Virus record (IMG/VR): IMGVR_UViG_3300030372_004077
Coordinates: 1 to 40,658 of that record
From: a virus
Lineage: Duplodnaviria > Caudoviricetes
Length of the DNA stretch: 40,658 nucleotides
Strand: one strand, 5' to 3'
The notes beneath the pieces are model-generated. The model ran no database searches. It was not told the DNA's origin and was given only the letters and a program-made list of their open reading frames with translations. Shown here piece after piece: positions 15,106-34,898 of this stretch. The position numbers were made by a program, and so were the translations under genes. The stretch's first letter is position 1, and each line of letters starts with the position of its first letter.

Positions 15106-16473
15106 TTAAGTTGCGATTAGACCAGTTGGGACTCGAATGTCCTCTTCCCGTCCTTGGCAACGTGGGTTTTCACAAACAAGTTCAAACTCATTGTACGCAT
15201 ATGCTTGGAAAGCAAACGTACCCGGAATCTGCTTGAAGATAGATCCAGTTGAGGTATCCCAACCGTAATCACCAAGCTTGACTCGCTTCATAGCAGAACG
15301 ATCCATAATGGTGTAGCTGTTCAATGGAGCAGACCGTGCGGTCTCCCATGGAATCTGACGTGCACCATACTGGTATGCAATCGTGCTATGACCTTTAAGA
15401 GCTTTAAGGTCTGTCTGCATGTATACAGGGTCAATCTCTTGCAGGTATACCTGAAGCAAAGAGTTGTGTGAGAAGATAACAGGATCCATCTCATCAACAT
15501 CCTTAGGCCCAAGGTCTCCCATACGCATCAACAGGCTCGTGATTCGCCAGTGGTTAAAGTCACGAAGATTATTGTTATTGTCAATAATGAATGACTGCCA
15601 AGGTGAAGCTGTAGATCGATCAATCCCATGGTAAACACCAGTGTTATTAATTGCATCAGCAAGACCTGTAATACAGTTACCCCATTCGTTGCCGTTTGCA
15701 TCACCCTCAACAACAAAGTCATTATCAGCAACATTAACAGCAGGGCTAACAGTAATTGTCTGTGCAGCTTGATCGACAGAGGTAACAGTGCATGTATCAG
15801 CAGTATTAGCTTCAAGTTGAGCGGCCGTACCAATAGCAAGCTGCATTCCGGGACGCATGTAACGAGCACCCGCATAAGTGCTCATGTATGCCTTTGTTTT
15901 AAATGCAGCAGCAGGGTCACACTCACGCTGTTGAAGCGTAATGGTTGTTCCAGCAACAGCACCATTTACAAGAGCAAGAACACCAGAGTTTGCATTGCTT
16001 GTCCCTGCAACAGTGCTACCAACAGCACCACCAGCAGTACCACCCCAGTACTTAGGTCCGATACGATTACGGTGAGAGTTTTTCGCATCGGAAACCAACT
16101 CGTCCATAATCTGCCGGTACATACCTGGCTTCTCATGAGCGCGAATTAGCTTAGGTCCGGTGATCTCCACAATGTCCATGTGGGGGAACAACCGAACAGC
16201 AGCCTCATCGTATGACGGTGGGTTGTACACGGGAAGCACAGGTGCTGCCGCTCCAGGTCCACCAGAAACAAATCGGCTACCGCTACCACCTGCTGTTTTG
16301 TACAGATAGTATTGAGAGTCTCCACCATTCCAATCTTCTTGATTAACAGAATCAATCCACTTTTCAACATCATCAACTGTGTCAAGAAGTTTAATAATTA
16401 CATCAGCGTAAGTGTACTGAAACAGTTCACTAAACGCTCCAAACGAACTTTGGGCTGACTTTGGAAGTGCCAT
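15106..16473 (-). CDS. Major capsid protein (HK97 fold, with a central insertion domain; 455 aa)
   Basis: Follows portal and scaffold; ITGLADAI...YHGIDRS..PWQ motif and C-terminal ELVCENPRCQGR typical of MCPs; AGGAG RBS; terminator downstream. Confidence 0.88.
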   Translation of the reverse strand: MALPKSAQSSFGAFSELFQYTYADVIIKLLDTVDDVEKWIDSVNQEDWNGGDSQYYLYKTAGGSGSRFVSGGPGAAAPVLPVYNPPSYDEAAVRLFPHMDIVEITGPKLIRAHEKPGMYRQIMDELVSDAKNSHRNRIGPKYWGGTAGGAVGSTVAGTSNANSGVLALVNGAVAGTTITLQQRECDPAAAFKTKAYMSTYAGARYMRPGMQLAIGTAAQLEANTADTCTVTSVDQAAQTITVSPAVNVADNDFVVEGDANGNEWGNCITGLADAINNTGVYHGIDRSTASPWQSFIIDNNNNLRDFNHWRITSLLMRMGDLGPKDVDEMDPVIFSHNSLLQVYLQEIDPVYMQTDLKALKGHSTIAYQYGARQIPWETARSAPLNSYTIMDRSAMKRVKLGDYGWDTSTGSIFKQIPGTFAFQAYAYNEFELVCENPRCQGREEDIRVPTGLIAT

Positions 16474-17208: not shown

Positions 17209-19290
17209 TTACCCTTGACCACCTAGTTCACCTACAAACCCGTTAGCAACAGCAGGAACTTGCGCTGCGCCACGGCCCTCTTGACCTGCACCCTGAAGCA
17301 GTTCTAAAGGATTTTGACCCTGCTGCTGAGCACCTTGTCCACCGCCCATATCAACAGGCGCTTGGTTAGGAGCAATAGCAGCTTGATGTTTTTGAAGCAA
17401 TGCTTCCAACTTCATTTGTTGGTCTAAGTTATAATCTAAAAAGAACTTAGGGTCACGCATTGCTGTCAATAAAATATCAATATGTTTTTGATGATTCATC
17501 CAAGGCTTAAAGAAAGGCTCTTGGCCCTGCTGGATTCTCATTACGTTTATTTCGGCCACAGCTTTATCGCCAGGCTCTTCAACATCTCTTAACTTATAAG
17601 CAACAGGAGCGCCCAACAAAAGCTCTACAACAGCGTTTGTTTTGGGGTTATCATCCTGGAGCATTCCGTTTGCAGCCAACTGCATAATAGATGTTCTTAT
17701 TTGATTTGGATAAGAAACTGCCGCTGAACCAGGGACAATCCTAATGTCAACTAAGTTAAACGGAGTGCCGTCAAACTCATAAACAGAAGGCTGTTGGTCT
17801 TGACCAAGTAGTGAAAACTTATAACCAATAGGCAAGTATTCTTGGCATAGCATAATAAGATGGGTCGCCTGGTGAGCTTGAGCTGCTTCAATTTCCTGAA
17901 CAGTCGGTGCCATTGCAACTTGATTCTCTTCGAGGAGGCGATCAAGATAAGCTGCGCTGTCACCGCGAGACGGAACAGAACCACCAACAGGAGAAGCCGT
18001 AAGGCTCAACGCCTCCAAATCAGCCATTGCATCCTGTCGCATTTGGTACAGGTGCTGCGGTATTTGAGGGGGAACCATGAAGGTTGGCTTCTCTTCACCA
18101 TAAGGAATGTACTCGTAAATCTCACCAGCACGACCCTGAAAATTTGTGTCGTTAGAGCCCTGTGGCTTTAGCATGGGTGGGTCAGCAGTTCTTTCTGCAG
18201 CCCTAATCTCAATGTGCTCTACAAGGTCTAATCTCTTTTGGGCTTGTCGCAAAACATCAACGACACAAAGTCCCCATCCTCTGTCTGTAAACTGACGGTC
18301 TCTAAATGTAGAGTGAGGGTAGTCGTTATAGGGCAATCCATCTACGATCTTTATAATTTGATCACCAGTATAGATACACCTAAAACCTTTTCTATAATCA
18401 ATTCCATACTTTGTCGAAACAACAGGGGAATGATAAAAGTCATAAACTTCAATCATTTGACTAGATGAGTACCCATAGTCATCTCTAAGACCAAAAACAG
18501 AATCAACTTCTCTAAACAAAAACCCATCTTCAGGGTCAGTAATTTTCTGGACCTTATCTAAGTCAAGGTCTGGAAAATATATCTCAGCCAAGTCAACCGG
18601 AATCATCTTTCTTTCAGCGTAGTTCATACACTGACTTACTGTAAGATGTCTCCACTGCGGGTCAGGAAAGAAGTTAAACGGGTGAACAGACCTAAGCCTT
18701 GGGAGTCCTGTCTGGTAACTGGCTGTGTTTAATTCTTTAACTGTCTGGAACGGAGCGTCAACCAAAACAGGCTGATCGTCTTCATCTAAAGCCGGGACAC
18801 TGACCTCTGAATATGATGGTTCATCATTTACATACTGAATGTCTTCAACCCATTCTCCTGAATGAGGATCCCACTGCGTAGCAAAGATGCCGTTACCAAA
18901 CACCATCATGTTCATCATCGCAGCATGCCTGGAATAAATGCTCTCTCTTTTTTCAGCAAAGTGAAGAATCAAAGAGTTTGCCACAGAAGCTCTTTTTCTA
19001 GCATCTCTGCTGTTAGAGCCTGGAACACATTCGGCCATCATTCGGGGAGAAGTTAACTTTGCATGGTACTTTCTAAGTTTATCTTGAACTTGAGGGTTGC
19101 TGCTCTCTCCACCACCAGGACCAAAAGAGCTTGGACGCTGTGTCATTGGATTAAACTCAATGTTTGTAAACCCAGCAGCAAATGCAGCGTTTTCATACCA
19201 CCTGTACTCAAGCGGCTTTCTTGCATCTTTGTTTCTTGCTACACACTTCTTAACGTAATCAAGAACATTGTATTTTTCGTTTGCCGCCAT
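17209..19290 (-). CDS. Portal protein (693 aa)
   Basis: RSVHPFNFFPDP, GWGLCVVDVLRQAQKRLD and ADPPMLKPQG motifs typical of P22-like portals; Gln/Gly-rich C-tail; synteny. Confidence 0.88.
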   Translation of the reverse strand: MAANEKYNVLDYVKKCVARNKDARKPLEYRWYENAAFAAGFTNIEFNPMTQRPSSFGPGGGESSNPQVQDKLRKYHAKLTSPRMMAECVPGSNSRDARKRASVANSLILHFAEKRESIYSRHAAMMNMMVFGNGIFATQWDPHSGEWVEDIQYVNDEPSYSEVSVPALDEDDQPVLVDAPFQTVKELNTASYQTGLPRLRSVHPFNFFPDPQWRHLTVSQCMNYAERKMIPVDLAEIYFPDLDLDKVQKITDPEDGFLFREVDSVFGLRDDYGYSSSQMIEVYDFYHSPVVSTKYGIDYRKGFRCIYTGDQIIKIVDGLPYNDYPHSTFRDRQFTDRGWGLCVVDVLRQAQKRLDLVEHIEIRAAERTADPPMLKPQGSNDTNFQGRAGEIYEYIPYGEEKPTFMVPPQIPQHLYQMRQDAMADLEALSLTASPVGGSVPSRGDSAAYLDRLLEENQVAMAPTVQEIEAAQAHQATHLIMLCQEYLPIGYKFSLLGQDQQPSVYEFDGTPFNLVDIRIVPGSAAVSYPNQIRTSIMQLAANGMLQDDNPKTNAVVELLLGAPVAYKLRDVEEPGDKAVAEINVMRIQQGQEPFFKPWMNHQKHIDILLTAMRDPKFFLDYNLDQQMKLEALLQKHQAAIAPNQAPVDMGGGQGAQQQGQNPLELLQGAGQEGRGAAQVPAVANGFVGELGGQG

Positions 19291-21186: not shown

Positions 21187-23274
21187 CTACCTCTGTATCC
21201 AAAAATTTAACATTGCATTAGAATTATAATTTTTATTTCTCTTATTATTCGCCTTAACGGTCGCCCTTAAGTCATCAAATGTCAAGACTTTAGGTTGAGC
21301 CATTGGTATCTCCTTTCTGCATTTTAAACAGACACCTCCCGCTACTACAGCGTGTTGACACTCTGGCTCTTTTTCTTCTGGGGGCTGATAAAGCGTAGAC
21401 CCCATGTATGGCAACTGACGACTGGCGTATATACCTAGCATTAAACAGGTTACCTCATCATCATGATATCTTTCACCTGTCACAGGGTCTGTACCATCCA
21501 TAGCCTCTGGCAACATCCTCGAGCTTTTCTTAACAAAAACTTCTAGCTCTCTTAACGTGTTCGGGTTTTTAACAACACACATTCCTTTTTTAAAAAATGC
21601 AGTAGCTGCACTAACTGCCTCTGATTTACTTCGGCCAGTCATCCTCCAACCTAAGTATTTTGTTGGAGCTTCGTTCTGGATGTTGTCTGTATTCTTACGT
21701 CTAAAGATTCGATGAAGCGGGTAACACGACCGGAACAGGGCTAATGCTGCGGCTCCACATGAGTTAACCTCCGGTATCTGCCAAGCCATGTTATAATACG
21801 CCCCAAGGGCAATGGCTTCAGAGGCAGACTCTTCTGGGTAGCACTTCTCTCTAAAGTGGGCTACCTGAGTTAAAACATCTCCCCTTTTATAAACATGGAT
21901 AACATTATAATCGCACTGGGCGCTTTGTCCTTCAGCGTAATCTGATGAAACAATGTACTCTTCTCCAGGTATAGGGTCTTCGTATATCCTTATCGGTCCA
22001 AAGCTCTCAGGAACAAACTTAAACATATCAGGCGTTACCTCATGTTTAGTTTTGCTAACCTGGCTCATCATAGCTTCTGGGTCTGGCTCTATAGCCTTCC
22101 TGCCATCCCTGGTTATTAGCTCACCCCTTACCGCCTTAGGTTCGTCTTTAATTCTTTCCGCTTGAGAGGCAACCTGACCCATATCAAAGATGGTGAGCGT
22201 AGAAGACATAAAGGCTTCACGCCAATGAGTGGGGTACTGGTTTTTAAATACCTTGGACTTACCGTCACAACGGTCCTGAATAGCCCAGCGTCTCCAGTCA
22301 ATCCAACCCATAGGATGAAGCTTTTGAGAATCAGGTTCTTTATTCCACCTGGGAACAATATGTGTTTTTAATAAATCAAACTCATCGTCATCCAGGTTTA
22401 ACAAAGACGAATACTTCTCTAGCCCAGTACTGTCTTTTCTCGAGAAACATTGAAGCCAGTCATAAAATAGGCCTTGGTTTTCTTTAGTAGGCTCTTGCCA
22501 GCACTGCTGCTCATCATCAAGCCACGATATAAACACAGGCTCAAACTCAGAACGACCAGCAACAGCCTCTTCCCATAAACGAGAATAAGAGTCACCACGG
22601 CTCTCAGCAGTTGTATCGATAACAATTGCACCTGTATTCTTCCTAACAGTAGGAAACATCTCTTTAATAATTGTGCTTTGATTACGGTACTTTGCAAACT
22701 CTGAGAGCAAAAGGTACTGAATAGTAGCACCCGTTCTTGCTAAAGGAGTTCTTTCTGTGAAGATAGATATGGTTGAGTTAAGACCGCTGTTTGGTTTAAC
22801 ACCACCTCTTTCCCAATTAAGAAGTTCTTCTTGGGGGATATCCCTTCTAAACTCCATAGGCTCTTTGAACGACCTGGAGTTACCCCAGCGCTCTGCTCTT
22901 AACGTAGACGGGTAGTTGTTATAGAATATATGGTTTCGTCTGTGTATCTCAGCAGCCATGTCATCTAGCTGCGCTCCAATAACTACGTTTGTGTTTTCTG
23001 TTAAGGACGCTTGCCTAAATGCATCCATACAAAAGAACGTAGTGGAGCCAATACGTCTGGCCTTGCAAACAACAATACGAAGAAAGCCCCTGCTAAACCA
23101 TTGCCTGTTGACAGCTTCAGCAAGTCTTTGTTGGACTCTTCTTAATTTAACTCTGGCAATTGGCCCATCTTCTGGGGCGATGTGAAGTGGGGCTATGTCG
23201 TTTTCAGCAAAGAACGATATGTCAGAAAGGCAGTCTTGCCTAAACTTCTTAACATGTTCACTCTTTACTTCCAT
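21187..23274 (-). CDS. terL: Terminase large subunit (695 aa)
   Basis: LRRVQ Q-motif, Walker A KARRIGSTT, Walker B LLLSE, coupling motif DTTA, RNase H-like SSDYAEG...CDY and HDDEV. Confidence 0.93.
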   Translation of the reverse strand: MEVKSEHVKKFRQDCLSDISFFAENDIAPLHIAPEDGPIARVKLRRVQQRLAEAVNRQWFSRGFLRIVVCKARRIGSTTFFCMDAFRQASLTENTNVVIGAQLDDMAAEIHRRNHIFYNNYPSTLRAERWGNSRSFKEPMEFRRDIPQEELLNWERGGVKPNSGLNSTISIFTERTPLARTGATIQYLLLSEFAKYRNQSTIIKEMFPTVRKNTGAIVIDTTAESRGDSYSRLWEEAVAGRSEFEPVFISWLDDEQQCWQEPTKENQGLFYDWLQCFSRKDSTGLEKYSSLLNLDDDEFDLLKTHIVPRWNKEPDSQKLHPMGWIDWRRWAIQDRCDGKSKVFKNQYPTHWREAFMSSTLTIFDMGQVASQAERIKDEPKAVRGELITRDGRKAIEPDPEAMMSQVSKTKHEVTPDMFKFVPESFGPIRIYEDPIPGEEYIVSSDYAEGQSAQCDYNVIHVYKRGDVLTQVAHFREKCYPEESASEAIALGAYYNMAWQIPEVNSCGAAALALFRSCYPLHRIFRRKNTDNIQNEAPTKYLGWRMTGRSKSEAVSAATAFFKKGMCVVKNPNTLRELEVFVKKSSRMLPEAMDGTDPVTGERYHDDEVTCLMLGIYASRQLPYMGSTLYQPPEEKEPECQHAVVAGGVCLKCRKEIPMAQPKVLTFDDLRATVKANNKRNKNYNSNAMLNFWIQR

Positions 23275-24078: not shown

Positions 24079-24185
24079 TGCACCCTCCTGGTACGGGATC
24101 CCTCACGAATCCACTCACAAACACGTATAACACAATTAAACAAAAAACACCCCCTGCAATTATGTCGGGAGATTTCTTTTAAACT

Positions 24186-24201
24186 TGGCACAGCGTTTGC
24201 A
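24186..24201 (+). promoter_or_regulatory. sigma54 (-24/-12) promoter motif 1
   Basis: TGGCAC-AGCGT-TTGCA, an exact match to TGGCAC-N5-TTGCW. Confidence 0.75.
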
Positions 24202-24300
24202 ATTTATAATAGTTATATATTAATAATATAATACTAGGTTTATTATATTATTATTAATACGATAACTAGTGATTAATATATTAATAAATCCATATATGCA
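24202..24300. other. Very AT-rich tract (candidate unwinding element/origin)
   Basis: About 100 bp composed mostly of A/T (aatttataatagttatatattaataatataat...). Confidence 0.5.
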
Positions 24301-24336
24301 CTACCCTCGAAAATAATAACCAAGGAATACCATGAA

Positions 24337-24349
24337 TAACAACAACTTA
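24337..24349 (+). promoter_or_regulatory. IHF-like site
   Basis: TAACAA-CAAC-TTA, one mismatch to WATCAA-N4-TTR. Confidence 0.4.
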
Positions 24350-24494
24350 CGCATTGTCTGGCCTGAATCATGGGTTAACAAGGGTTCTTTGGGGAAGGGG
24401 AATAGGGGAGTCAAGTATATCGAGGGGGTACCCCTAGGCATTTGGTGTCACCCTTACCCTCGCATATAGTAACTCTGCAGAGAGTTACGGATTC

Positions 24495-24547
24495 ACGTAT
24501 GGTACCATATATGGTCACTCTGAAACGTATGGTACCATATATGGTCA
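24495..24547. repeat. Two exact 23-bp direct repeats with nested palindromes
   Basis: ACGTATGGTACCATATATGGTCA at 24495-24517 and 24525-24547. Confidence 0.95.
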
Positions 24548-24735
24548 TTTATTACAGGGACCCTAAGACCCCGTGATAAACGCAACACTGGAAGCCGTAG
24601 GCCATGAGGTTAACGGAATGCCCCTTTAAACGCCCTTGTGGGTTATAGGTATACTTACCCCTTCCAAACCCCTTTACGCGCACGCGCACGCGTAGCCAAG
24701 CCCCTTGCCCGTTTTGTCACTTTGGTCAATTATTG

Positions 24736-24828
24736 GTGACAATTTGCGCACCGATGCACTGCGGTCCAATTGTGCAGTATATCGCCCATATTGGCCAATT
24801 CACCTGTGACAATTTGCGCACCCATGCA
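24736..24828. repeat. Two 23-bp direct repeats (22/23 identical), candidate activator/operator sites
   Basis: GTGACAATTTGCGCACC(G/C)ATGCA at 24736-24758 and 24806-24828. Confidence 0.9.
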
Positions 24829-24840
24829 ATAGTGATGCCA
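24825..24840 (-). promoter_or_regulatory. sigma54 (-24/-12) promoter motif 2, facing the late arm
   Basis: Minus strand reads TGGCAT-CACTA-TTGCA. Confidence 0.7.
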
Positions 24841-24901
24841 GTGCCCACTTGTCCCGAATAGCTGCCGAAACGGCCAATTGACACAACAAAAACCCCAATG
24901 A

Positions 24902-24914
24902 TATCAGTGACTTA
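24902..24914 (+). promoter_or_regulatory. IHF-like site upstream of the early sigma54 promoter
   Basis: TATCAG-TGAC-TTA, one mismatch to WATCAA-N4-TTR, with an A-tract upstream; lies between the repeats and the promoter. Confidence 0.55.
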
Positions 24915-24964
24915 CAACAATCGTTCATCCAGGTCTCCATTATTCTCACCTATTTGGTAAAAGT

Positions 24965-24980
24965 TGGCATTGGCATTGCA
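24965..24980 (+). promoter_or_regulatory. sigma54 (-24/-12) promoter motif 3, driving the early arm
   Basis: TGGCAT-TGGCA-TTGCA; predicted +1 near 24991, just before a 5' hairpin and the first early gene. Confidence 0.75.
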
Positions 24981-24997
24981 ATACTACAGAATTGAAA

Positions 24998-25028
24998 GGC
25001 GGGGAAACCTGCCACGTTCTTTGAAAAC
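24998..25028 (+). promoter_or_regulatory. boxB-like GNRA hairpin plus rrn-type boxA (nut-like site)
   Basis: GGCGGG-GAAA-CCTGCC (24998-25013) followed by GTTCTTTGAAAAC (25016-25028). Confidence 0.55.
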
Positions 25029-25458
25029 TAGACAGCGCGTAACGATAGGGACCTATATAGGAGGCTATCATGAAAGAAAAGAAGACACGCAACGCACGAC
25101 GCAAAGCGGCCCAACGGCTCCGTAAGGAATGGAAAGGTAACGATGCTCCGAGTGTTGCAACACTAAAGAAAAGGAAGAAGGCAACCCAATGGGTGGGGCT
25201 TCAAGATGTGATGCGCGTGGTGTTTGTTCCTGAGTGCAAGAAAACCGTTGCCAATGGTCGCGGGTTTCATCATAAGCACAAACACCACAACACATCGTCG
25301 CACGTAGAGCTTGCACGATACGAACGAGAAACCAACAGGATTGCGGACCGTATCGAATACGCATCGGAACCAGTGAAGAAGAGAGAACAATTCAGGACGG
25401 GCCTTGTAGTTTACAAGAGAGACCGTCGAACCTTTTAACCTGTTACGCGCTGTCTAGT
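25027..25458. repeat. Perfect 17-bp inverted repeat enclosing the first early gene
   Basis: ACTAGACAGCGCGTAAC (25027-25043) and GTTACGCGCTGTCTAGT (25442-25458), then A and T9 (25460-25468). Confidence 0.95.
25070..25438 (+). CDS. Basic protein with N-terminal arginine-rich motif; candidate antiterminator/RNA-binding protein (122 aa)
   Basis: AGGAGG RBS; TRNARRKAAQRLRKEWKGN resembles the lambda N ARM; central His-rich HHKHKHH. Confidence 0.6.
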   Translation: MKEKKTRNARRKAAQRLRKEWKGNDAPSVATLKKRKKATQWVGLQDVMRVVFVPECKKTVANGRGFHHKHKHHNTSSHVELARYERETNRIADRIEYASEPVKKREQFRTGLVVYKRDRRTF

Positions 25459-25543
25459 ATTTTTTTTTGTTTCATCTCGTCGCCTGTCCTTTCCTATGAG
25501 GGGGGGAGGGGCTACGGGATGTGACTGAAAAAGGAGGTGTTAC

Positions 25544-25591
25544 ATGTACTCAGTACCTGAGGATATTTGGAGAAAGGCTGGGGGTGAATGA
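25544..25591 (+). CDS. 15-aa mini-ORF MYSVPEDIWRKAGGE
   Basis: AAGGAGGTG RBS; stop overlaps the next ATG (ATGA). Confidence 0.5.
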   Translation: MYSVPEDIWRKAGGE

Positions 25592-25794
25592 TGAGATTCA
25601 TAACCAAAGGAAGGCCGTTACCGCCAGCCCCTGAAGGGACTAGGTGGGGCCTGATAAAGGTCAGTGAAGAGGTGATAGTCTCTCACAAGGGTGACCCGTT
25701 CGGAGACAACCCGGAACCGTTTTACGGGAAGACGGTTATGATGAAGAAGGGAACCATCGCACGTTGGGTGTGGGTTCTGAAGGAGGTGAGGTGA
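25588..25794 (+). CDS. Small early hypothetical protein (68 aa)
   Basis: GGGGGTG RBS; coupled to neighbours. Confidence 0.7.
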   Translation: MMRFITKGRPLPPAPEGTRWGLIKVSEEVIVSHKGDPFGDNPEPFYGKTVMMKKGTIARWVWVLKEVR

Positions 25795-26009
25795 TGGAGT
25801 TTATGTCGAGCAGGGCGAGACACCTTTCAGTCCTAGGGCAAAACTTGAAGTTTCGTTCCATTCGAGAACACGCCAAGTACTGCGAGGAAGCGATTGCTGA
25901 GCAATACGAGCAAATCAAGTTCCTTGAGAACGAGCTTGAAATACTGAAACGAAGGGTCTTTATGAAAGACCTTAAGTTGGCCAGCCTTTACATGAAGGAG
26001 GTAGAGTGA
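25794..26009 (+). CDS. Small early coiled-coil protein (71 aa from ATG 25794)
   Basis: GAGGTG RBS; TGATG overlap with the upstream gene. Confidence 0.7.
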   Translation: MEFMSSRARHLSVLGQNLKFRSIREHAKYCEEAIAEQYEQIKFLENELEILKRRVFMKDLKLASLYMKEVE

Positions 26010-26155
26010 TGACCCAGGACAAGTTCAAGAGGAACATCAAGGGTTACCGCAAAGGGGGCAAGGCCTGTCCCTGCTGCATGGAAACAACGAAGAAGGAGTC
26101 GCGACGATTGGCACGGCGCCGATTGAAGCAATCCGACAGGAAGGAGATGAGGTGA
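26009..26155 (+). CDS. 48-aa basic protein with CPCC motif (not in ORF track)
   Basis: MTQDKFKRNIKGYRKGGKACPCCMETTKKESRRLARRRLKQSDRKEMR; GGAGGT RBS; TGATG overlaps at both ends. Confidence 0.7.
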   Translation: MTQDKFKRNIKGYRKGGKACPCCMETTKKESRRLARRRLKQSDRKEMR

Positions 26156-26352
26156 TGACGCTATTTGAAACGACCGAGAGCAAAGCAAAAGAAATATTGC
26201 GAGCACAGTTTGCCAAGCGAAAGGCACCCAAAACTCACAAGGTTTGTTGGGACCATGCATGCTATGTGCAGGATGCGCGGGAACGACACCGAGTGTACCG
26301 AGAAATGTTAACGGAGCATGGACTCCCATTTAAAAGACCATTGCATAAATAA
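26152..26352 (+). CDS. Small early hypothetical protein (~66 aa)
   Basis: AAGGAG RBS; HKVCWDHAC possible metal site. Confidence 0.7.
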   Translation: MMTLFETTESKAKEILRAQFAKRKAPKTHKVCWDHACYVQDARERHRVYREMLTEHGLPFKRPLHK

Positions 26353-26395
26353 TTAGCGGAGAGTTGAGTGATGGAAGAGGTGGCAAGGAGGTAGG

Positions 26396-26659
26396 TTGAT
26401 GGCCATTATCGGCAAAACATATACCTATGAGGTGAGCACTAGGGACAAGGCAATCGAGATTGTAGCTGAGTACCTTAAGAAGTACGGCCATTCACTAGGC
26501 TCAAGGATTGACTATTCAGTGGAGGATTTATCGGACGACGTGGAGCAAGTAACCTTGGGTGTGGTCCTGAAGATAACGCCACCTAGACTGATGACGCAGA
26601 GGGGACTGGAGCAGGTGGTCTTTTCTCTGAGGGATGCGACCTGCCTATGGAGTGAGTGA
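26396..26659 (+). CDS. Small early hypothetical protein (~87 aa)
   Basis: AAGGAGGT RBS; coupled to the next gene. Confidence 0.7.
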   Translation: MMAIIGKTYTYEVSTRDKAIEIVAEYLKKYGHSLGSRIDYSVEDLSDDVEQVTLGVVLKITPPRLMTQRGLEQVVFSLRDATCLWSE

Positions 26660-26844
26660 TGCTTATGGATGATGACATTGATTTTGAATTACTTGAGCAA
26701 GTAATGATGGACGGTTACGTGGATGTGGACTGCACTGCGGAGTGCGGGTACTCGGCAAGGATTGAGCCGGATGCTGACTACCCGTGCCATGAGTGCAAGG
26801 AAGGTCGTCTGGTTTCTCCAATGGTGAAGGCTGGAATCATTTAA
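26656..26844 (+). CDS. Small zinc-ribbon protein (~62 aa)
   Basis: CTAEC...CHEC cysteine pairs. Confidence 0.7.
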   Translation: MMLMDDDIDFELLEQVMMDGYVDVDCTAECGYSARIEPDADYPCHECKEGRLVSPMVKAGII

Positions 26845-26852
26845 GGGGGTGA

Positions 26853-27077
26853 GTGATGAGCAAAGAAACCAAAAAGTACAAGGTTTATGTGACATGGACA
26901 GTAGGCGCTGAAGCGGTAATAGATGCCGAGAGTGAAGAAGAAGCGGTAGATTTAGCGCATGGCATGGACTTGGATACATTCGACGGCCAAGACTATGTGT
27001 CGAACTCTTTCGAGGTGGACCACAACATGACTGAGGAGGTAAGTAATGCACCAAGTGAGGAGGAAAACCATCAGTAA
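26853..27077 (+). CDS. Small acidic protein, DpnD/PcfM-like pattern (~74 aa)
   Basis: KKYKVYV...VIDAESEEEAVDLA pattern. Confidence 0.6.
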   Translation: MMSKETKKYKVYVTWTVGAEAVIDAESEEEAVDLAHGMDLDTFDGQDYVSNSFEVDHNMTEEVSNAPSEEENHQ

Positions 27078-27840
27078 TTACAGCAGGTTCTATAAGGACG
27101 CGGGCTGTAGTTATCTGGTGACAACCAACAATGCCAAGACTCTCAAGGGTGAGGGATACCTGACAAGCATCATCCACCTGTCCCCGCATAAACTGGCAGG
27201 GGTTGTGGTCGATGGCAAGCGCGTCTCAGTGTGTGAACGTGCGACCCCTGAGTGTATCGGGGCGTGTCTCAATGGCTCGGGCCATACCGAGATAAGGATG
27301 AACAAGCTTGGCCTTAACTCTGACCCGGCAAGGGACGCCAGGACTAGGCTGCTATTCAGTGACCCGGACAAGTTCAAGGAGTTAGTGGTCAAAGAGCTGG
27401 ACGCTAATGTTCGGAGGGCTGAGCGTGAGGGACTCATCCATGTGATACGTCCCAACGGGACCAGCGATATCCTATGGGAGAAAGTTTTCCCTGAATTGTT
27501 TGACCTATTCCCTCAAGTGTACGATTATACCAAGTATAACCCAGAAGAGAGGATTGTTCCGAGCAATTACGACTTGACCTACAGTTGCAATGGGGATGTC
27601 GAGCGCACCGAGGGACTGTTGGTCAATGGTCATAGGGTGGCCAAGGTGTTTGGTCTAGTCAAAGGGCAAGCCCTGCCGGACACATGGCGAGGGTTCAAGG
27701 TGCTCGACGGTGACTTGGATGACCTAACCTTCACCAAGCCAAAGGGTGTGGTGTTAGGCCTGCGTATTAAGGGTCAAAGAAACAAAGCAAAGCTCAAGGT
27801 GGGCAAGCTTAAACTAGGTAAGTTTATCGCAGCAGCATAG
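27046..27840 (+). CDS. GP88-like protein (radical-SAM-like, Cys triad; 264 aa)
   Basis: GAGGAGG RBS; HLSP...CERATPECIGAC (C-x6-C-x3-C), IRPNGTSDILWE, YDYTK and LDGDLDDL motifs of the phage GP88-type family. Confidence 0.7.
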   Translation: MHQVRRKTISNYSRFYKDAGCSYLVTTNNAKTLKGEGYLTSIIHLSPHKLAGVVVDGKRVSVCERATPECIGACLNGSGHTEIRMNKLGLNSDPARDARTRLLFSDPDKFKELVVKELDANVRRAEREGLIHVIRPNGTSDILWEKVFPELFDLFPQVYDYTKYNPEERIVPSNYDLTYSCNGDVERTEGLLVNGHRVAKVFGLVKGQALPDTWRGFKVLDGDLDDLTFTKPKGVVLGLRIKGQRNKAKLKVGKLKLGKFIAAA

Positions 27841-27848
27841 GAGGCAAT

Positions 27849-28100
27849 GTGAAGGGACTTAAAAAGTACAGTGTGCTGATGACAGTGCACAAGGATATTG
27901 AGTTAACCATATGGGCGAAGGATGAGGACGCAGCAAACAGCATAGCGCTGGAGCTATCCCAAGACCAGTATGAGAGTAGCTACATAACAACAACCGATGA
28001 GGGGGAAATTGAGGTGCAGATGTCTCAATCAGTAGACCAACTGATGGGGCCAACTTACACAACAGGCAGTGAGATTCATCAAACAGTGGAGGTGAAGTGA
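27849..28100 (+). CDS. Small acidic protein, DpnD/PcfM-like pattern (83 aa)
   Basis: AGGAGG RBS; KKYSVLM...TIWAKDEDAANSIA. Confidence 0.6.
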   Translation: MKGLKKYSVLMTVHKDIELTIWAKDEDAANSIALELSQDQYESSYITTTDEGEIEVQMSQSVDQLMGPTYTTGSEIHQTVEVK

Positions 28101-28381
28101 TGAGAGGTGAAGACGTAGGTATTTTTTCTGATGACATGCAAAGCTTGGTCGATGACCTTAACCGAATCTATGACATGGCAGGGGATGAGCCCCTTGATGA
28201 GTCGCATCTTAAGATGCTCATGCATACGATAAACATGATGGACCTGACAATCCAGGGCAACATTCAGCAGGTGTCTGAGTCTTTGGCTCGGATTCCTGAC
28301 CCGATAGGTCAAGCTGAGAGGGCGTTTGACATACGTAAAGAGGAGGCAATGTTCGAGAAGATGCAACAGAACTCAAACTAG
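28097..28381 (+). CDS. Hypothetical helical protein (~94 aa)
   Basis: GGAGGTG RBS; overlap with upstream stop. Confidence 0.7.
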   Translation: MMRGEDVGIFSDDMQSLVDDLNRIYDMAGDEPLDESHLKMLMHTINMMDLTIQGNIQQVSESLARIPDPIGQAERAFDIRKEEAMFEKMQQNSN

Positions 28382-28391
28382 AGGAGGTAAG

Positions 28392-28580
28392 ATGGGTGGA
28401 AGGCTAACAGGGTCCAAGGTTTTGGTGCACACCATTGGACCAAATGGAGTGTACGCAAAGGTGTTAAGCACTTATTACAACAAGGTGAAGGTTAAGTATT
28501 ACGACGCTGCTGATGGTGGAGACATTGTCAGATGGGTTCACGTTGGAGAGATAACCAACGAAGGAGGCACTAATGGGTAA
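28392..28580 (+). CDS. Small SH3-like beta protein (62 aa from ATG 28392)
   Basis: GAGGAGGT RBS; GSKVLV...AKVL...KVKVKY...RWVHVGEI pattern. Confidence 0.65.
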   Translation: MGGRLTGSKVLVHTIGPNGVYAKVLSTYYNKVKVKYYDAADGGDIVRWVHVGEITNEGGTNG

Positions 28581-28794
28581 GGTTAAAAGAGGGGCGGCAA
28601 CGGCAGACCTCACGCATTTAGTTGAGCTAGTGCTCATGCAACTAACAACAATGTACGAGGTTCTAGAAAGGAACGAAGGCAACCCGTTCCTTAACCCCAT
28701 AAACAAACAGCAAGCTATCGACTCGATGGAGGCTGTTGGTAACTTGTGTCACATGACAGCACAAGAGTTTAGAGGTTCTGATGAATGGACGTGA
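28573..28794 (+). CDS. Hypothetical protein (73 aa)
   Basis: AAGGAGG RBS. Confidence 0.7.
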   Translation: MGKVKRGAATADLTHLVELVLMQLTTMYEVLERNEGNPFLNPINKQQAIDSMEAVGNLCHMTAQEFRGSDEWT

Positions 28795-28856
28795 TCCTAA
28801 GTTGCATTTTATGGTGGGTGGTTTTCTTTTTATACCTTTGGTTTATCCAAGAATGA
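28785..28856 (+). CDS. 23-aa single-TM peptide MDVILSCILWWVVFFLYLWFIQE (not in ORF track)
   Basis: GAGGT 8 nt upstream; fills the gap between neighbours; almost wholly hydrophobic. Confidence 0.55.
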   Translation: MDVILSCILWWVVFFLYLWFIQE

Positions 28857-28865
28857 GGAGGAGTT

Positions 28866-29075
28866 ATGGATATTAAAGAGCAAGAAGTGACGGTGACAGA
28901 AGTAAAGCTCAACAAAGAGGAGTTGGTTGAACTCTTTGTTCAGAATATCGAGGCGCTGAAAGAATACGGTGCGCTCGATGATAAGTTCTCTTACAAGTTT
29001 ACGCTTGTGACAGATGAGAGCGGGGGTGACATTGCCCACATTACATTAACAAAAGTAAGGGAGAGAAGTCTTTAA
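28866..29075 (+). CDS. Hypothetical protein (69 aa)
   Basis: GAGGAGGAG RBS. Confidence 0.75.
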   Translation: MDIKEQEVTVTEVKLNKEELVELFVQNIEALKEYGALDDKFSYKFTLVTDESGGDIAHITLTKVRERSL

Positions 29076-29539
29076 TGTATTTATTAACTGCAATCAAACT
29101 AAGCCCTGACACACGCAAGTGGTTAAACAGTTACGCAATTAAGTTATCAAGGGATACTTGGCTGCATAACTCAACATGCCCAGGAACGGAAGCTGCTGTT
29201 ATCGATAGAAAGATAGCAAGGCAGATGCAAAGGTGCATACTTCTCTACGCCATACCTTGGATTGACAGGGTACATAGCATGGTGATGGAGGACAGATTCA
29301 ACAGGAAAGACCTCCATCTTATCAAGAACAAGCTGGAGCTTTTGCATGAAGCAGTCGAGTGTGGAGATATCATGCTGCAGATTGCTTCATACATGGATAT
29401 ATTTTCTGATATAGTTGAAGAGCATTCAGAAAATATTACACAACAAGAGCCAAATGAAAACGCCAAGTTACTTGGCATTGAGGAAGATAGTGTACAAAAC
29501 TTTCTTTTATCTCTTGTAAAAAAAGAAACGATGCACTAA
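29075..29539 (+). CDS. Hypothetical protein (154 aa)
   Basis: TAATG overlap; GGGAG RBS. Confidence 0.75.
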   Translation: MYLLTAIKLSPDTRKWLNSYAIKLSRDTWLHNSTCPGTEAAVIDRKIARQMQRCILLYAIPWIDRVHSMVMEDRFNRKDLHLIKNKLELLHEAVECGDIMLQIASYMDIFSDIVEEHSENITQQEPNENAKLLGIEEDSVQNFLLSLVKKETMH

Positions 29540-29565
29540 GTTCTCCATAGCTCAACGGAGCATAC

Positions 29566-29964
29566 ATGAACAATAAAAAACCTAGCACATACAGGGAGCT
29601 AAGTGACCCTAGCTCTCCACCTTCCTCTAGTATTGAGGCAGCAGAGAGAATCATGGCGTCACTTGAGTCCCAGAAAGGAGGCATGTTGTCTGACCAGAAG
29701 TTCCTTGAAAACATCTTGAGGCACGTTGTTGACAGCCCGGATGAATTCAACAGGGAGATACAGGGGGAGCCGTCCGCATCAACCAGGAAGGTTGAGAGGC
29801 ACTCTCTTGCTGGTCGAACCAACAAGACAAAGGTTGTGCTTTGGTTAAGCGATGTTGAGTTAGAGCAGCTTCAGTCGTTAGTTAAACACCGTGGTGATAG
29901 GAGTCCTTCGGACCTTATTAACCATTTAATTTGTTTAGCCCTTGGGGCATTGAGGTCGATATGA
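29566..29964 (+). CDS. Protein with C-terminal ribbon-helix-helix DNA-binding domain (132 aa)
   Basis: KTKVVLWLSDVELEQLQSLVKHRGDRSPSDLINHLI matches the RHH strand-helix-G-S-helix pattern. Confidence 0.65.
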   Translation: MNNKKPSTYRELSDPSSPPSSSIEAAERIMASLESQKGGMLSDQKFLENILRHVVDSPDEFNREIQGEPSASTRKVERHSLAGRTNKTKVVLWLSDVELEQLQSLVKHRGDRSPSDLINHLICLALGALRSI

Positions 29965-30830
29965 ACGATGGAGCAAGGCTTGCCAGCATAGTGCTGGAGA
30001 TGACCAACCAGGATGCTGTTCAGAAAGGTGATGGTGATTACTACCCTAGGACATCTGCTGTCTCGAGGTGTGTTCGTGACATGACTATGCACAGGTACGG
30101 TGAGCCATGGAGTGATATGCCTGAGGCGTCATGGGGTACACAGTTTAGGTTCGACGTTGGTCATGACACCGAAGAGAGAATGATAACTGCTATGGAGGAT
30201 GCAGGCATTGGTGTCGTCTGCCAGCAGATGAGAGTCAAGGCAACTACGCCCGGTGGCATTGAGGTTATCGGACACATGGATGGTATCGCCTTAGTGCCTC
30301 ATGAGTACCCGCTTGGAGGCAAGTGGTACGTGCTGGATATCAAGTCAGCAGGAAAGTACATGTACGGGAGGGTATATGACGAGAGCGTTAGCAAGCCAAA
30401 GCGTGAGCACATTAAACAGATTGCAGTCTATTCCCAGAGTAAGGTTATTGACTTCAACTTCCCAGCTATTGAAGGGGTCAAGGTCCAAGACCTACACTTT
30501 GAGGGGTATGAGTTCGGAGGTGGTTTGGTTGGGTATCTCTCCATCGAGAGACCAACTAAGGGATACGGAAAGAATAAGGTTGATCTCCCAAAGATTCACT
30601 TCTGTGACTTTGAGATTGACCCGATTGAAGTGGAGGTGTGGCTCGAAGACACATACGACTGCGTCGAAGAGCACTACCAAAACAAAACTGTGCCAGGGAT
30701 TCCTGACGAAGACGATGACATGGTGTGGGGAGGCATACGGTGTTCACCAAGATGGTGCCGAAGGTACAGCATTTGTAAGGGGCATGTTCCCCCAAGTAAC
30801 AAAGAACTAGAGGAGGTTCTACATGGATAA
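29961..30830 (+). CDS. PD-(D/E)XK (Cas4/RecB-like) exonuclease (probable start ATG 29961)
   Basis: SRCVR, G.H, GHMDG, VLDIKS, HIKQIAVY and C-terminal CSPRWCRRYSIC motifs. Confidence 0.85.
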   Translation: MNDGARLASIVLEMTNQDAVQKGDGDYYPRTSAVSRCVRDMTMHRYGEPWSDMPEASWGTQFRFDVGHDTEERMITAMEDAGIGVVCQQMRVKATTPGGIEVIGHMDGIALVPHEYPLGGKWYVLDIKSAGKYMYGRVYDESVSKPKREHIKQIAVYSQSKVIDFNFPAIEGVKVQDLHFEGYEFGGGLVGYLSIERPTKGYGKNKVDLPKIHFCDFEIDPIEVEVWLEDTYDCVEEHYQNKTVPGIPDEDDDMVWGGIRCSPRWCRRYSICKGHVPPSNKELEEVLHG

Positions 30831-31911
30831 CAATACTTTATTTAGAGAGCTTGCCAAGCATTACAAGTTCACAGAGAAAGACTGGTGGCAGCATCGCCAG
30901 TCAGGCAGTTGGATTCTTGCACACAGCGCTGTACTCAAGATGTCCTGTGTGCCTACACCAGAAGGCAACACCATTCTCTTGCCCAGCATGACCGAGTACA
31001 ACTGGATTAAGAAGGGCGAGGAGGGCGTGTTTGGTCGCGAGGTTCTGGTCGGCGGTACGTTCAAGTTGCTTGACCCCAAAGGCAAAACCATTCGTAGTGT
31101 TGTCGCTTGGGGTGAGGCTAACCCACTGAATGTAAACAAGAATGTGTCATACCCTAACATCATGGCAGTCAAGCGAATGATTGACCGTGGCGTCTTGGGT
31201 GTGTTGGCATTCAACCAACTTAACATTTACTCCGCTGTTGAGGCAGAGACATTCTCTGACCCAAAGCAGAAGGTGGAAAAAAAGCCAGAGCCTAAGCCAG
31301 ATAACGTCCTCAAGGTGGGTGAGACTATAACTCGCCCAACTAGGACAATGCCTCAACCTCAGCCACCAAAACCAAAGGCTCCACCAATACAGGCTGAAAA
31401 AAAAACTCTTGAGGTAAATGATTCAGGAGAAGAGGTAATGATTCGGTCTCACAAAAAGATGGTTTTAGATGCGTTATCTGCCGGAAGTGAGCATGTGTTC
31501 CCGTCTGGCGTGACAAGGGGTAAAGCTGAAAAGGTTTCAAGGAATGGCCTATCCGAGTGCACTGGCCTTGACAACAGCGCCGTTGACAGGGCCTTAAAGG
31601 AACTGATGAGCGAGGGACTTGTTGTTAGGGAGGGTATCAGACGAGGCACAAAGTATGGCCTTGCTGTCTCCCCTTCTGGCTCAAGCCTGACCCATGAGTT
31701 GTTCAATGACCTATGGCGTGATGCTGTTGGTCGAATGACAAACATGGGCGTTAGTTACCAGCAGATAGGCCAGTACACCAGGGAGGTCACAGGCCATGAC
31801 ACAGCAGTGTCTGCCTACAACGCAGGAAATTTGTCCATAGATAAGATTGAAAAGATCTTTCTTTTAGGACAGAATTGGGCGGCATCCAAAGCGGATAGCG
31901 TCCAAGTTTAG
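30823..31911 (+). CDS. Putative single-strand annealing protein fused to a winged HTH (362 aa)
   Basis: Lies between exonuclease and ssb; AWGEA...YPNIMAVKRMIDR...IYSAVEAE N-domain; Pro/Lys linker; wHTH SRNGLSECTGLDNSAVDRALKELMSEGLVVREG..RGTKY. Confidence 0.5.
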   Translation: MDNNTLFRELAKHYKFTEKDWWQHRQSGSWILAHSAVLKMSCVPTPEGNTILLPSMTEYNWIKKGEEGVFGREVLVGGTFKLLDPKGKTIRSVVAWGEANPLNVNKNVSYPNIMAVKRMIDRGVLGVLAFNQLNIYSAVEAETFSDPKQKVEKKPEPKPDNVLKVGETITRPTRTMPQPQPPKPKAPPIQAEKKTLEVNDSGEEVMIRSHKKMVLDALSAGSEHVFPSGVTRGKAEKVSRNGLSECTGLDNSAVDRALKELMSEGLVVREGIRRGTKYGLAVSPSGSSLTHELFNDLWRDAVGRMTNMGVSYQQIGQYTREVTGHDTAVSAYNAGNLSIDKIEKIFLLGQNWAASKADSVQV

Positions 31912-31921
31912 CGTCTTTGAT

Positions 31922-32128
31922 GGGGTGAGTAGGGTTGCTCTTACTCTCTCTAGGGGCATAGGTTGGTGGACGCATCAACTGACCGGGAGCATGGCCTGGG
32001 CCATGTGGCAACCACTGGAAAGTGGGGAGAAGAGTTAACCCTGATTCTTCTCTGCCGTCCCCACCCGGAAGGCGCGGGTGACACCTACCTTAAGTGGTGT
32101 GACTGTCGGGAGAGTTCGGCGTTTTTTT
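31922..32128 (+). ncRNA. Candidate structured RNA: eight consecutive hairpins ending in T7
   Basis: Hairpins at 31922-31950, 31961-31980, 31990-32005, 32012-32025, 32026-32053, 32062-32080, 32081-32100 and 32105-32120, many with G-U pairs valid only on the + strand. Confidence 0.6.
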
Positions 32129-32144
32129 ACAATAAGGAGGAGCT

Positions 32145-32336
32145 ATGTCGCTCGATATTGCCTTAAAGGCAAAAGATCTCGTTGAGAAAGTCAATGAGTG
32201 GAACGAACAGGTGGTCGCTGGTGTTGGTGGAAACGTCAGCGCAAACAAGCGCGCTCGCAGCATGAGCGTTGACATCAGGAAAGAATTTAAAAGCTTAAGA
32301 CTTGAACTGCTTGAACTGGAGAAGAAAAAGAAATGA
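32145..32336 (+). CDS. Histone H1-like Hc1-family protein (63 aa)
   Basis: GNVSANKRARSMSVDIRKEFKSLR resembles the GNKAAxxRAR..S..I.K..K..R core of Hc1; TAAGGAGG RBS. Confidence 0.65.
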   Translation: MSLDIALKAKDLVEKVNEWNEQVVAGVGGNVSANKRARSMSVDIRKEFKSLRLELLELEKKKK

Positions 32337-32935
32337 GAGATATAAACGAGGTAAAGATACTTGGCACAGTAAGCCAAGCTGTCAGGGTTAATTCAACTCA
32401 AAGCGGCAGTGTTGCTAACGTGTCAGTGGTCACAATTAAAAAGCGTGGAGAGTACGACATCAAGAAGTTTCACTCTGTAACCTGCTGGAATGACTTGGCA
32501 AACGAGGCATCTAACCTGAGAGAAGGGGACAGGGTTTTTGTTAGTGGGTCTTTGGACACAGACAAGTATGAGAAAAACGGACAGACTGTTTACAAAGATA
32601 AGATAACGGCATCGGCACTTATCAAAGCAGCTTCTGGCTCTAGCGCTAGCCAAGGTGCTCCATCAAACGGAGGCCCCCCAGGTTCTTTTAGTCGTGGGGG
32701 AGGAATGAAGAGCACCTTCCCCTATGCCGACAAGGCACACAAAGTCTCTTGGCCAAAGCCAGATGAGTCTGGGTTTAGCTACGCTGATGATGGGATTGCA
32801 AACCTGTGTGTTGCTTGGACGAATCCTTCTGACCCAAGTCAGGGCGGGACTGTGTACCAGTTTGCTGACAACGATTGGCAGGAGCACGGAAAGGTGGACC
32901 AGGTTCTTATCAATGATGATGACATCCCATTTTAA
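32333..32935 (+). CDS. ssb: Single-stranded DNA-binding protein (200 aa)
   Basis: INEVKILG, FHSVTCW, GDRVFVSGSL OB-fold motifs; C-terminal DDDIPF. Confidence 0.93.
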   Translation: MRDINEVKILGTVSQAVRVNSTQSGSVANVSVVTIKKRGEYDIKKFHSVTCWNDLANEASNLREGDRVFVSGSLDTDKYEKNGQTVYKDKITASALIKAASGSSASQGAPSNGGPPGSFSRGGGMKSTFPYADKAHKVSWPKPDESGFSYADDGIANLCVAWTNPSDPSQGGTVYQFADNDWQEHGKVDQVLINDDDIPF

Positions 32936-32943
32936 GGTGAACT

Positions 32944-33558
32944 ATGAACATTACCCTAGACTCAGAGACAATAAGAAAACATCCTGCTTTCGCCTCGCCT
33001 CTAAGGCTGGGTGTGTTAGCTCACTTGGCTGCCTTTGCTAGCGGGGAGACGACAACATGCGACGGTGTGCCACTGCCTCCATACTGTGTTGTTGTTTCTC
33101 CTGCTGCCCTGGCGGCAACCCTTTCATGCTCAAGGGGTCAGATTGAAAACGCAATATCCTCTTTGTTTAAACACGAGATGGTCTCGGTGGATAAGACAGT
33201 GGGTAAGCGAGGATACTGGCTGATTGACATGAGAAACTCTAAAGAGTTTTTCTCTGACGGAAAGACTTTATCTCCACCAACAGAAGTCAACATTCGTTCT
33301 TTGATGGACAAATGGGACAGGCTGTACGAAAAAAGAACGGGTGTAAAGTACATGCGTTCAAGGTCTGACTACTGGAAAGAGCAGGCAGACTGGAACAACC
33401 TTTTTCAGAACCTGGGCGGTGACGTCATGGTTGCTATGGAGAAGTACTTTGATGACATACGCTTCGGACAATGGGGCTATGCATTCAAGGTGTTCTTTAA
33501 AGCAGCACCTAGACTAACTGCTCAGCCCAACAAAGCGGAGCCTTGGCAACTCAGATGA
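32944..33558 (+). CDS. Putative replication initiator / HTH protein (204 aa)
   Basis: HTH-like SPAALAATLSCSRGQIENAISSL; directly upstream of the helicase. Confidence 0.55.
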   Translation: MNITLDSETIRKHPAFASPLRLGVLAHLAAFASGETTTCDGVPLPPYCVVVSPAALAATLSCSRGQIENAISSLFKHEMVSVDKTVGKRGYWLIDMRNSKEFFSDGKTLSPPTEVNIRSLMDKWDRLYEKRTGVKYMRSRSDYWKEQADWNNLFQNLGGDVMVAMEKYFDDIRFGQWGYAFKVFFKAAPRLTAQPNKAEPWQLR

Positions 33559-34898
33559 CACAGACACTTGGAGGAGAAGTTACATGGAAACCAGAGTTTT
33601 ACTTTCTTGCATCCCTGGTTGGAGCGCCACGATACCTATCAACAGTAGACAGTCCCCATAGTTTATTCTCAAACAATGACCTGCTGTCCGTGTTCAGGAT
33701 GATGGAGCAAGCCATTAACCTGAGGGGGCATGCAGACCCTTTGATTGATAACGTGAACAAGGGTGAACTTGAGTTAACCGCTGAGTATCAGAGAAGCAAG
33801 GTGGACTTGAATAGGTTGTGGCCTGACCTGTCAGACCCAACGATAAAAGGATCTCCCGATAAGTTCCACGGGCTGCTCGAGCACTACGCTGCCCTGAGGT
33901 TTATACAGAAGACGTTTGCCTCCAGGATAACAGACATGAGCAACGGCATGTATGGCCCTGAGGAGGCAGTGTCTCACATACAGAAAGACGTTGTGTCCGT
34001 TCACATGTCAGAGCAGTACGAGTCCAGAACTATGCAGTCAATGATTCAAGACATGTGGTTCGATAGACTTAAGAACCCACCAGCCACAATAAAGACAGGC
34101 TTTAAAAAGATGGACAGCGTCATTGGGGCTTTGATACCCGGATGCACCTACCTTTGGACAGCAAGGACAAGCCACGGTAAAAGCTCCTGGGTGTCTCAGA
34201 TTGTAGACAATCAAGCTGAAGCAGGGCATCGAGTGGGTATCATAAGCCTCGAGGACTCCAAGTCCGTATGGGCATCAAGGTGGATGTCGAAGGTGTCAGG
34301 CGTTACACTCGGGAAGATTAGAGACAACGTGCTCACTGCACCAGACGAAAACACACTGACGGAAGATGACCAAGCCGCTCTCGAGAAGTCCACATACAAA
34401 GAGCACTTAAAGAATGTTGTTCTTGTTGATGCTAAGGGGGCAAAGATAACTGACCTGCTTAGAATCATGAGCGATATGGTCGTTAGACAGGGGTGTCAAA
34501 TCGTCTATGTCGATTATCTTCAGGCGATATATGCTGACGCCAGGAACACGCGCTCCAGGAGAGACTGGCTTGAGTATTGCTGGGCAATGATGGAGAAGGA
34601 GGCTGACAGGCTAGAGGTTCCACTCATGTTAACAGCACAGCTAAACAGAGAGTGGGAAGGCAACCCTCTTCCTTCAATGCCTGGGTTAAGGAACACGGAG
34701 TGGATGGGTGCGGCTGAGCAGAAGTGCTATGTCGGCGCTGTTATCTACAGACCATTCCGAGACCCAAGACTTCCCCAGTCAGAGAGAGAGGATAGGTTTG
34801 ATGAGCTTTTAATTAACATTGAGAAGTGCAAGCAGGGAGAGAATATTGCCATTCAATATGCGTTCGACCCTTCTCGTTCAAAGATAACGGAGTTATGA
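33555..34898 (+). CDS. dnaB: DnaB-like replicative helicase (probable start ATG 33555)
   Basis: IKTGFKKMD, Walker A ARTSHGKS, ISLE, Walker B VYVDYLQ, AQLNRE, IEKCKQG. Confidence 0.92.
   Translation: MTQTLGGEVTWKPEFYFLASLVGAPRYLSTVDSPHSLFSNNDLLSVFRMMEQAINLRGHADPLIDNVNKGELELTAEYQRSKVDLNRLWPDLSDPTIKGSPDKFHGLLEHYAALRFIQKTFASRITDMSNGMYGPEEAVSHIQKDVVSVHMSEQYESRTMQSMIQDMWFDRLKNPPATIKTGFKKMDSVIGALIPGCTYLWTARTSHGKSSWVSQIVDNQAEAGHRVGIISLEDSKSVWASRWMSKVSGVTLGKIRDNVLTAPDENTLTEDDQAALEKSTYKEHLKNVVLVDAKGAKITDLLRIMSDMVVRQGCQIVYVDYLQAIYADARNTRSRRDWLEYCWAMMEKEADRLEVPLMLTAQLNREWEGNPLPSMPGLRNTEWMGAAEQKCYVGAVIYRPFRDPRLPQSEREDRFDELLINIEKCKQGENIAIQYAFDPSRSKITEL

Follow-up and report, generated by a model that had tools for sequence, protein, structure and literature searches.

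Predicted sigma-54 promoters, one of them heading the early arm, in the divergent control region of a marine tailed phage

The divergent control region of the phage genome under study contains three motifs that, as judged from sequence, very probably bind the host sigma-54 RNA polymerase, and for the one heading the early arm (P3) the full model, in which a host enhancer-binding protein acting via palindromes and IHF looping opens it as the first early promoter, appears fairly probable. The window, which is the whole 40,658-nt stretch of DNA analysed (IMGVR_UViG_3300030372_004077), was scanned on both strands with the strict pattern TGGCAY-N5-TTGCW, using shuffled sequences as the null. Exactly three matches were obtained in 40.7 kb, all within the ~1-kb control region (Table 1), versus a mean of 0.10 in shuffled sequence, with three or more being reached in none of 100 shuffles; the reversed pattern gave no match in the whole record against three for the true one, and the same three sites are the three top scores in a looser consensus scan of the window. 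This bears out the sequence-only reading, which had claimed three sigma-54 consensus matches in about 800 bp. At all three sites the GG and GC elements stand at fixed spacing. Across the relatives, 18 distinct copies of the motif hold three to four different bases in the spacer columns, and the base preceding TGGCA varies as well (T in 11, G in 4 and C in 3). That TGGCA and GC never vary in this alignment is imposed by the search pattern itself, so that the evidence consists only of positional recurrence and free spacers, which nevertheless argue for the motifs being sigma-54 promoters. P3 and P1 are intergenic, oriented towards genes and kept in place with a free spacer, P2 only in close strains; conservation of the motifs among relatives is thus found for sites 1 and 3, which recur, and fails for site 2 beyond close strains.

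Table 1. Coordinates of features in the control region, early arm and late arm (positions in the window)
Feature	Position	Strand	Remarks
Major capsid	15106-16473	-	late arm; family search
P22-like portal	17209-19290	-	late arm; family search
TerL	21187-23274	-	late arm; family search
Site 1 (P1), -24/-12 element	24186-24201	+	predicted +1 near 24212
AT-rich block, directly 3' of P1	24202-24290		inverted repeat 24218-24259
45-codon ORF behind Shine-Dalgarno-like word	24332-24469	+	no family match
Clade-wide element	24402-24457		GGTGWCWCCCTTAC at 24444-24457 and imperfect inverted arm ~29 nt upstream, G-rich spacer
Two 23-nt repeats with CCATATATGG palindrome	24495-24547		candidate distal enhancer sites
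Enhancer-like array	24706-24828		TG(A/C)C-N6-GTCA at 24706; 23-nt repeats at 24736 and 24806
Site 2 (P2)	24825-24840	-	only late-pointing site in window; predicted +1 near 24814
IHF consensus site, between P2 and P3	24902-24914	+	exact match to WATCARNNNNTTR
Site 3 (P3), heads early arm	24965-24980	+	predicted +1 near 24991
GC hairpin with GAAA loop	24998-25013	+	just past predicted P3 start
boxA-like word	25016-25027	+	only copy in window
20-bp leader-trailer-like helix	25024-25043 with 25442-25461	+	then T9 tract to 25468; encloses first early ORF
First early ORF, 122 aa	25070-25438	+	Arg/Lys-rich N-terminus; translation
Clade-wide protein, likely C-terminal ribbon-helix-helix	29566-29964	+	weak matches, E >0.7

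The record represents a near-complete phage genome (estimated at 99%) whose ends overlap, so that the largest late ORF (>2291 aa, no family match) spans the join; the terminal overlap, between positions 1-150 and 40510-40658 of the window, shows few differences. The late arm runs on the minus strand, starting from 24078, and the early arm occupies the plus strand from 25070 to 36447, with SSB, DnaB and a Cas4-like nuclease among its products. Integrase, sigma factor and RNAP families gave no match among the 45 window ORFs scanned, no iterons were found in the putative initiator gene, and the Rfam search returned two chance miRNA matches only. A 63-aa ORF at 32145-32336 has a near-cut-off match to the histone H1-like Hc1 (E 7e-5). 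The 14 runs listed with the region, none of them an RNA run, all come from marine or seawater metagenomes, and only two hold more than half of its words. A single public contig, from a run that may itself be the source of this record, covers the control region with 2 differences and the same three sigma-54 sites are also found in other assemblies (L001, L051), and therefore the control region is not an assembly artefact.

Searches with TerL gave 24 viral and 51 metagenome loci, plus one new contig from a further search; the motif scan covered the window and the 43 loci whose sequence extends 850 nt or more upstream of TerL, and site 3 was counted in the 16 relatives, window included, whose sequence reaches the first early gene. 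It precedes this gene in eight of them (the window, L052, L055, L056, L063, L101/L019, L085 and L073, the last copy having one mismatch at -14) and is absent in the other eight (L005, L006, L009, L059, L094, L013, L020 and G009), while the carriers of sites 1 and 3 together span three TerL clades, at 65-100% identity. The palindrome TG(A/C)C-N5-7-G(G/T)CA occurs in 8/8 site-3 regions versus 0/8 of the others, a comparison in which the pattern is post hoc, having been derived from the site-3 regions, the relatives are not independent and G009 has no clear anchor; its background is 0.2 per 600 bp in the window, which holds one exact copy and related repeats. The full CCATATATGG palindrome was found in six of nine regions upstream of site 3, the nine including a contig that ends before the site (L024), versus none of the eight other regions.

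The IHF-like site noticed in the earlier reading also stood up, being conserved and an exact match to the consensus WATCARNNNNTTR printed in PMC7962754 (excerpt), whereas a stricter consensus gave a chance-like result. This consensus alone is not rare, with 3 exact matches in the window versus 4.3 expected, and a random 65-bp window contains it exactly only 0.3% of the time. An exact copy lies within 260 bp upstream of site 3 in four of the eight site-3 regions; with up to one mismatch, a match at -80 to -15 is seen in 4/8 versus a background of 6.9%, and is missing in the other 4/8. Bacterial sigma-54 promoters carry GG and TGC at -24/-12 with upstream sites ~70-150 bp away (PMC3844500, excerpt) and have IHF between enhancer and promoter (PMC7962754, excerpt), a layout which the P3 region appears to share, with the palindromes as candidate activator sites; it differs from them in belonging to a phage without a detectable activator of its own and in having three sites around one putative enhancer block. 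The clade-wide element GGTGWCWCCCTTAC, a candidate packaging or late-control site, is found with up to two mismatches at 24 of 32 loci, with or without sigma-54 sites. Several contigs stop 100-300 nt past this element. A ACGCGCAC-type run (24674-24692) and CACCCCCTGCAATTATGTCGG (24148-24168) are both common to many relatives.

Site 1 shares its orientation with site 3 and faces away from the late genes, a point not brought out in the earlier reading; it is found at the equivalent place in 11 lineages after near-identical records were collapsed (the window, L052, L053, L055, L056/L003, L024, L063, L013/L072, L067, L069 and L070), all within one TerL clade of 79-100% identity. It is missing from a nested subclade (L005, L006, L009/L062, L059, L094 and L065), whose placement comes from a quick tree, with clade labels assigned by hand from the motif scan. 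Three distant relatives outside the site-1 TerL clade (L020, L077 and G008) have a sigma-70 promoter match (TTGACA-16-(-10)) at the site-1 position and in its direction. The 60 nt following every copy of site 1 are 80-90% AT, and no IHF match with up to one mismatch lies near any of 13 copies. At the equivalent of the 45-codon ORF, the relatives have ORFs of variable length, from 18 to 45 codons. An 80-aa ORF is inserted in the control region of L009 (1912-2154), L005 (1360-1599) and also L067, L072 and L024; in L009 it has a weak FlbD match (E 8e-4).

Downstream of P3, the hairpin and the boxA-like word occur at identical offset in three of the eight site-3 genomes (the window, L052 and L056) and are absent in five. 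The long helix enclosing the first gene is found in two of the eight: in silico it folds with a z of -4.2 in the window, and in L056 the same fold arises from different letters (z -4.5), the L052 contig being too short to judge. The hairpin-boxA cassette is exchangeable, as close strains swap sequence right after site 3. By analogy, the hairpin-boxA order near the 5' end fits a candidate rrn-type antitermination leader. Lambda N is an Arg-rich product of a first gene, as is that of the first early ORF of this phage, which has weak Atlas neighbours among N-type antiterminators (score 0.80, below the Atlas bar) and no Pfam or PHROG match to the lambda N family. In rrn leaders a hairpin and boxA are followed by a long leader-trailer helix (PMC10250234, excerpt), and the phage leader has hairpin, boxA and enclosing helix in this same order; however, the phage helix encloses a protein gene instead of 16S rRNA and lies downstream of a sigma-54 motif, and only 3/8 genomes have the hairpin-boxA. 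Hosts using sigma-54 and boxA at rRNA operons were also considered and set aside, with no convincing 16S start among at least 120 genome loci, 40 of which had short flanks. One chromosome of a Fidelibacterota MAG (L171, 1501-1555) carries a sigma-54 motif, a hairpin and a boxA-like word before a long non-coding stretch.

A distinct picture emerges for site 2. In the window 736 nt separate it from the first late ATG and it converges with P1, and a late-pointing site is absent in 7/8 site-3 genomes, including L052, which has 99% TerL identity, the window being the exception. In a strain-level contig showing 31 differences over 240 nt, site 2 is altered at four inner letters and one flanking letter, leaving the GG and TTGC core untouched and bringing the site closer to the consensus; in two short contigs from another run the core is unchanged among the rows listed. 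Dismissal of site 2 as a chance match is partly overturned by this retention of the core which, taken together with the absence of the site in other site-3 relatives, indicates that site 2 is probably real but lineage-restricted. As for the suggestion that both arms are gated by sigma-54, the early part holds, with sites 1 and 3 reading into the early arm, and the late part is weak, since it depends on a sole late-pointing site that most site-3 genomes lack. P2 being a true late promoter, so that both arms would be sigma-54-gated, is thus unlikely, even though its core is retained with spacer-only changes, late-pointing sites also exist in L013, L070 and L084, an IHF site sits between P2 and P3, this window has no late-pointing sigma-70 match and the unrelated phage G024 has sigma-54 sites in both directions: the analogues in those relatives are at differing positions, P2 is distant from the late genes and convergent with P1, and the sigma-54-independent clade-wide element is closer to these genes than P2.

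A sigma-54 promoter needs an activator to fire, and at the very start of infection the phage has yet to make any protein. We found no GAFTGA-like word in the six frames of the window, and the profiles PF00158 (Sigma54_activat) and PF02954 (Fis-type HTH) gave no match in five complete genomes, window included; these motif and profile searches agree with the earlier statement that the phage has no visible activator, sigma factor or RNAP. As the motifs are present and no phage activator is recognisable, the earliest genes are likely turned on only with an active host signalling protein, and the activator is most economically explained as a host bEBP. Opening of the promoters without a DNA-bound host activator, whether through a phage protein that is small or injected with the virion, through an activator in solution or through AT-aided bypass melting, would be in line with P1, which has no IHF match nearby and always AT-rich sequence after it, and with the large internal virion proteins that have no annotation; yet it is improbable, considering that no AAA+, GAFTGA or RNAP motifs were found in the phage, that the palindromes co-vary with P3 and that bypass transcription is rare in vivo (PMC4551910, excerpt). 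Moreover, no gene co-segregates with the promoters in four complete relatives: none of 47 window ORFs is present in both genomes with sigma-54 sites (G011 and G006) yet missing from G004 and G009. Because no gene tracks sigma-54 presence, the proposal of a small phage protein activating sigma-54 is not supported. The clade-wide ORF at 29566-29964 is the only conserved small DNA-binding candidate and is unlinked to sigma-54 presence. The ORF at 29075-29539 was rejected as an activator, having no informative match, and the large virion protein as an RNAP or AAA+ protein, having no such motif.

Searches directed at the host were negative within their scope, and gave no prophage or homology link for the earlier suggestion of a host among Myxococcota or other former Deltaproteobacteria. 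Looking for a TerL relative in GTDB species genomes gave 121 pattern stretches, none of them confirmed; the lysin-like ORF and the capsid had no informative match among cultured phages, and TerL had only 21-27% identity in the 20 matches listed. The enhancer palindrome was found in 18, 16 and 11 of 151 genomes in three phylum samples, with no enrichment over the reversed control, and none of the 41 genomic palindrome loci lay within 400 bp of a sigma-54 site. In L282 and L284 (genomes G444 and G420), tandem CCATATATGG-like palindromes lie between porin-like and transglycosylase-like genes, as labelled by eye, with no sigma-54 site nearby.

The sigma-54 holoenzyme could also act as a repressor, its closed complex blocking overlapping sigma-70 promoters until displaced. 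Sites 1 and 3 indeed overlap weak sigma-70-like matches (9/12 positions), and repression by sigma-54 is documented (PMC4551910, excerpt). However, the sigma-70 reading fails in L101, L085 and L073, where the -10 agrees at 2-3 of 6 positions, and site 3 is accompanied by palindromes and IHF sites, neither of which pure occlusion would need, making this alternative quite improbable. It is very improbable that the motifs are -35 boxes of a variant type or serve some other protein, for instance an origin or packaging factor. In favour of this, the unrelated phage L032/L033 has the same motif and an AT-rich block, next to words resembling DnaA boxes and to a helicase gene; against it, TGGCA is preceded by different bases, the 18 copies keep one constant distance from GG to GC, and the motif stands at a fixed distance ahead of a conserved RNA leader. 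In L033 (42-320) the motif is followed by the AT-rich block and several DnaA-box-like words and lies upstream of a 154-aa ORF and the DnaB-like helicase; the L032/L033 region is possibly a promoter-coupled origin.

The sigma-54 promoters of Pseudomonas phage YuA reportedly serve structural and lysis genes; here, by comparison, a conserved predicted sigma-54 promoter heads the early arm, along with IHF and enhancer-like sites. That phages can use sigma-54 is already known, since YuA depends on the host factor (PMC5053324 and bioRxiv 10.1101/2023.10.13.562163, excerpts), and its rarity among phages had been overstated in view of this published precedent. The likeness to YuA lies in a tailed phage that lacks its own RNAP and makes use of host sigma-54 (PMC5053324, excerpt), the difference in that YuA uses sigma-70, sigma-54 and a phage-specific motif, with one promoter assigned to sigma-54 by long-read start mapping (bioRxiv 10.1101/2023.10.13.562163, excerpt). 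No sigma-54 promoter at the head of a phage early arm, also with boxA, was found in the mostly open-access literature, which leaves absence unproven; the excerpt of PMC5418858 holds no passage on such a promoter. Scanning viral contigs with a motif and boxA pattern gave 11 loci, one of them this phage; in four (L235, L239/L240 and L242) small genes are preceded by a good site, with a divergent arrangement relative to the terminase genes in L239 and L242, and the rest look like chance. Among these records, PF00158 gave no match in G024 and G025 (67% and 46% complete). In G024 (L292: 3630, 3840 and 4708), three sigma-54 motifs in both directions lie close to the terminase end, and the early-pointing one is preceded by an exact IHF match.

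According to the model that we favour, host activation of P3, the sigma-54 holoenzyme would be held at P3 after injection as a closed complex until the host activator switches on, with the host enhancer-binding protein sitting on the upstream palindromes and being looped to P3 by IHF. The RNA would start near 24991, and its hairpin-boxA leader may recruit host Nus factors, perhaps joined by the Arg-rich product of the first gene, allowing transcription to continue beyond the T-tract and into the replication arm. P1 would be a second promoter in the early direction, probably served by the same enhancers acting from downstream and giving a short AT-rich RNA. P2 would be a lineage-specific, late-pointing promoter which may compete with P3 activation, as its -12 element overlaps the second 23-nt repeat of the enhancer array (24806).

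Extending this to integrase-less marine phages of several unrelated families, in which a host two-component enhancer gates the first transcript, a counterfeit rRNA leader runs the early arm and sister lineages escape by a sigma-70 swap, is a tentative and rather doubtful generalisation. If true, the injected genome would stay silent until one specific host signal, which amounts to signal-gated dormancy without a repressor, and the early arm would borrow the host ribosomal antitermination complex. The clade offers a natural experiment, with sigma-54 and sigma-70 versions, and both the activator and the host could be identified through the palindromes. Should P3 be the entry promoter, the phage would read directly from host physiology whether to begin infection.
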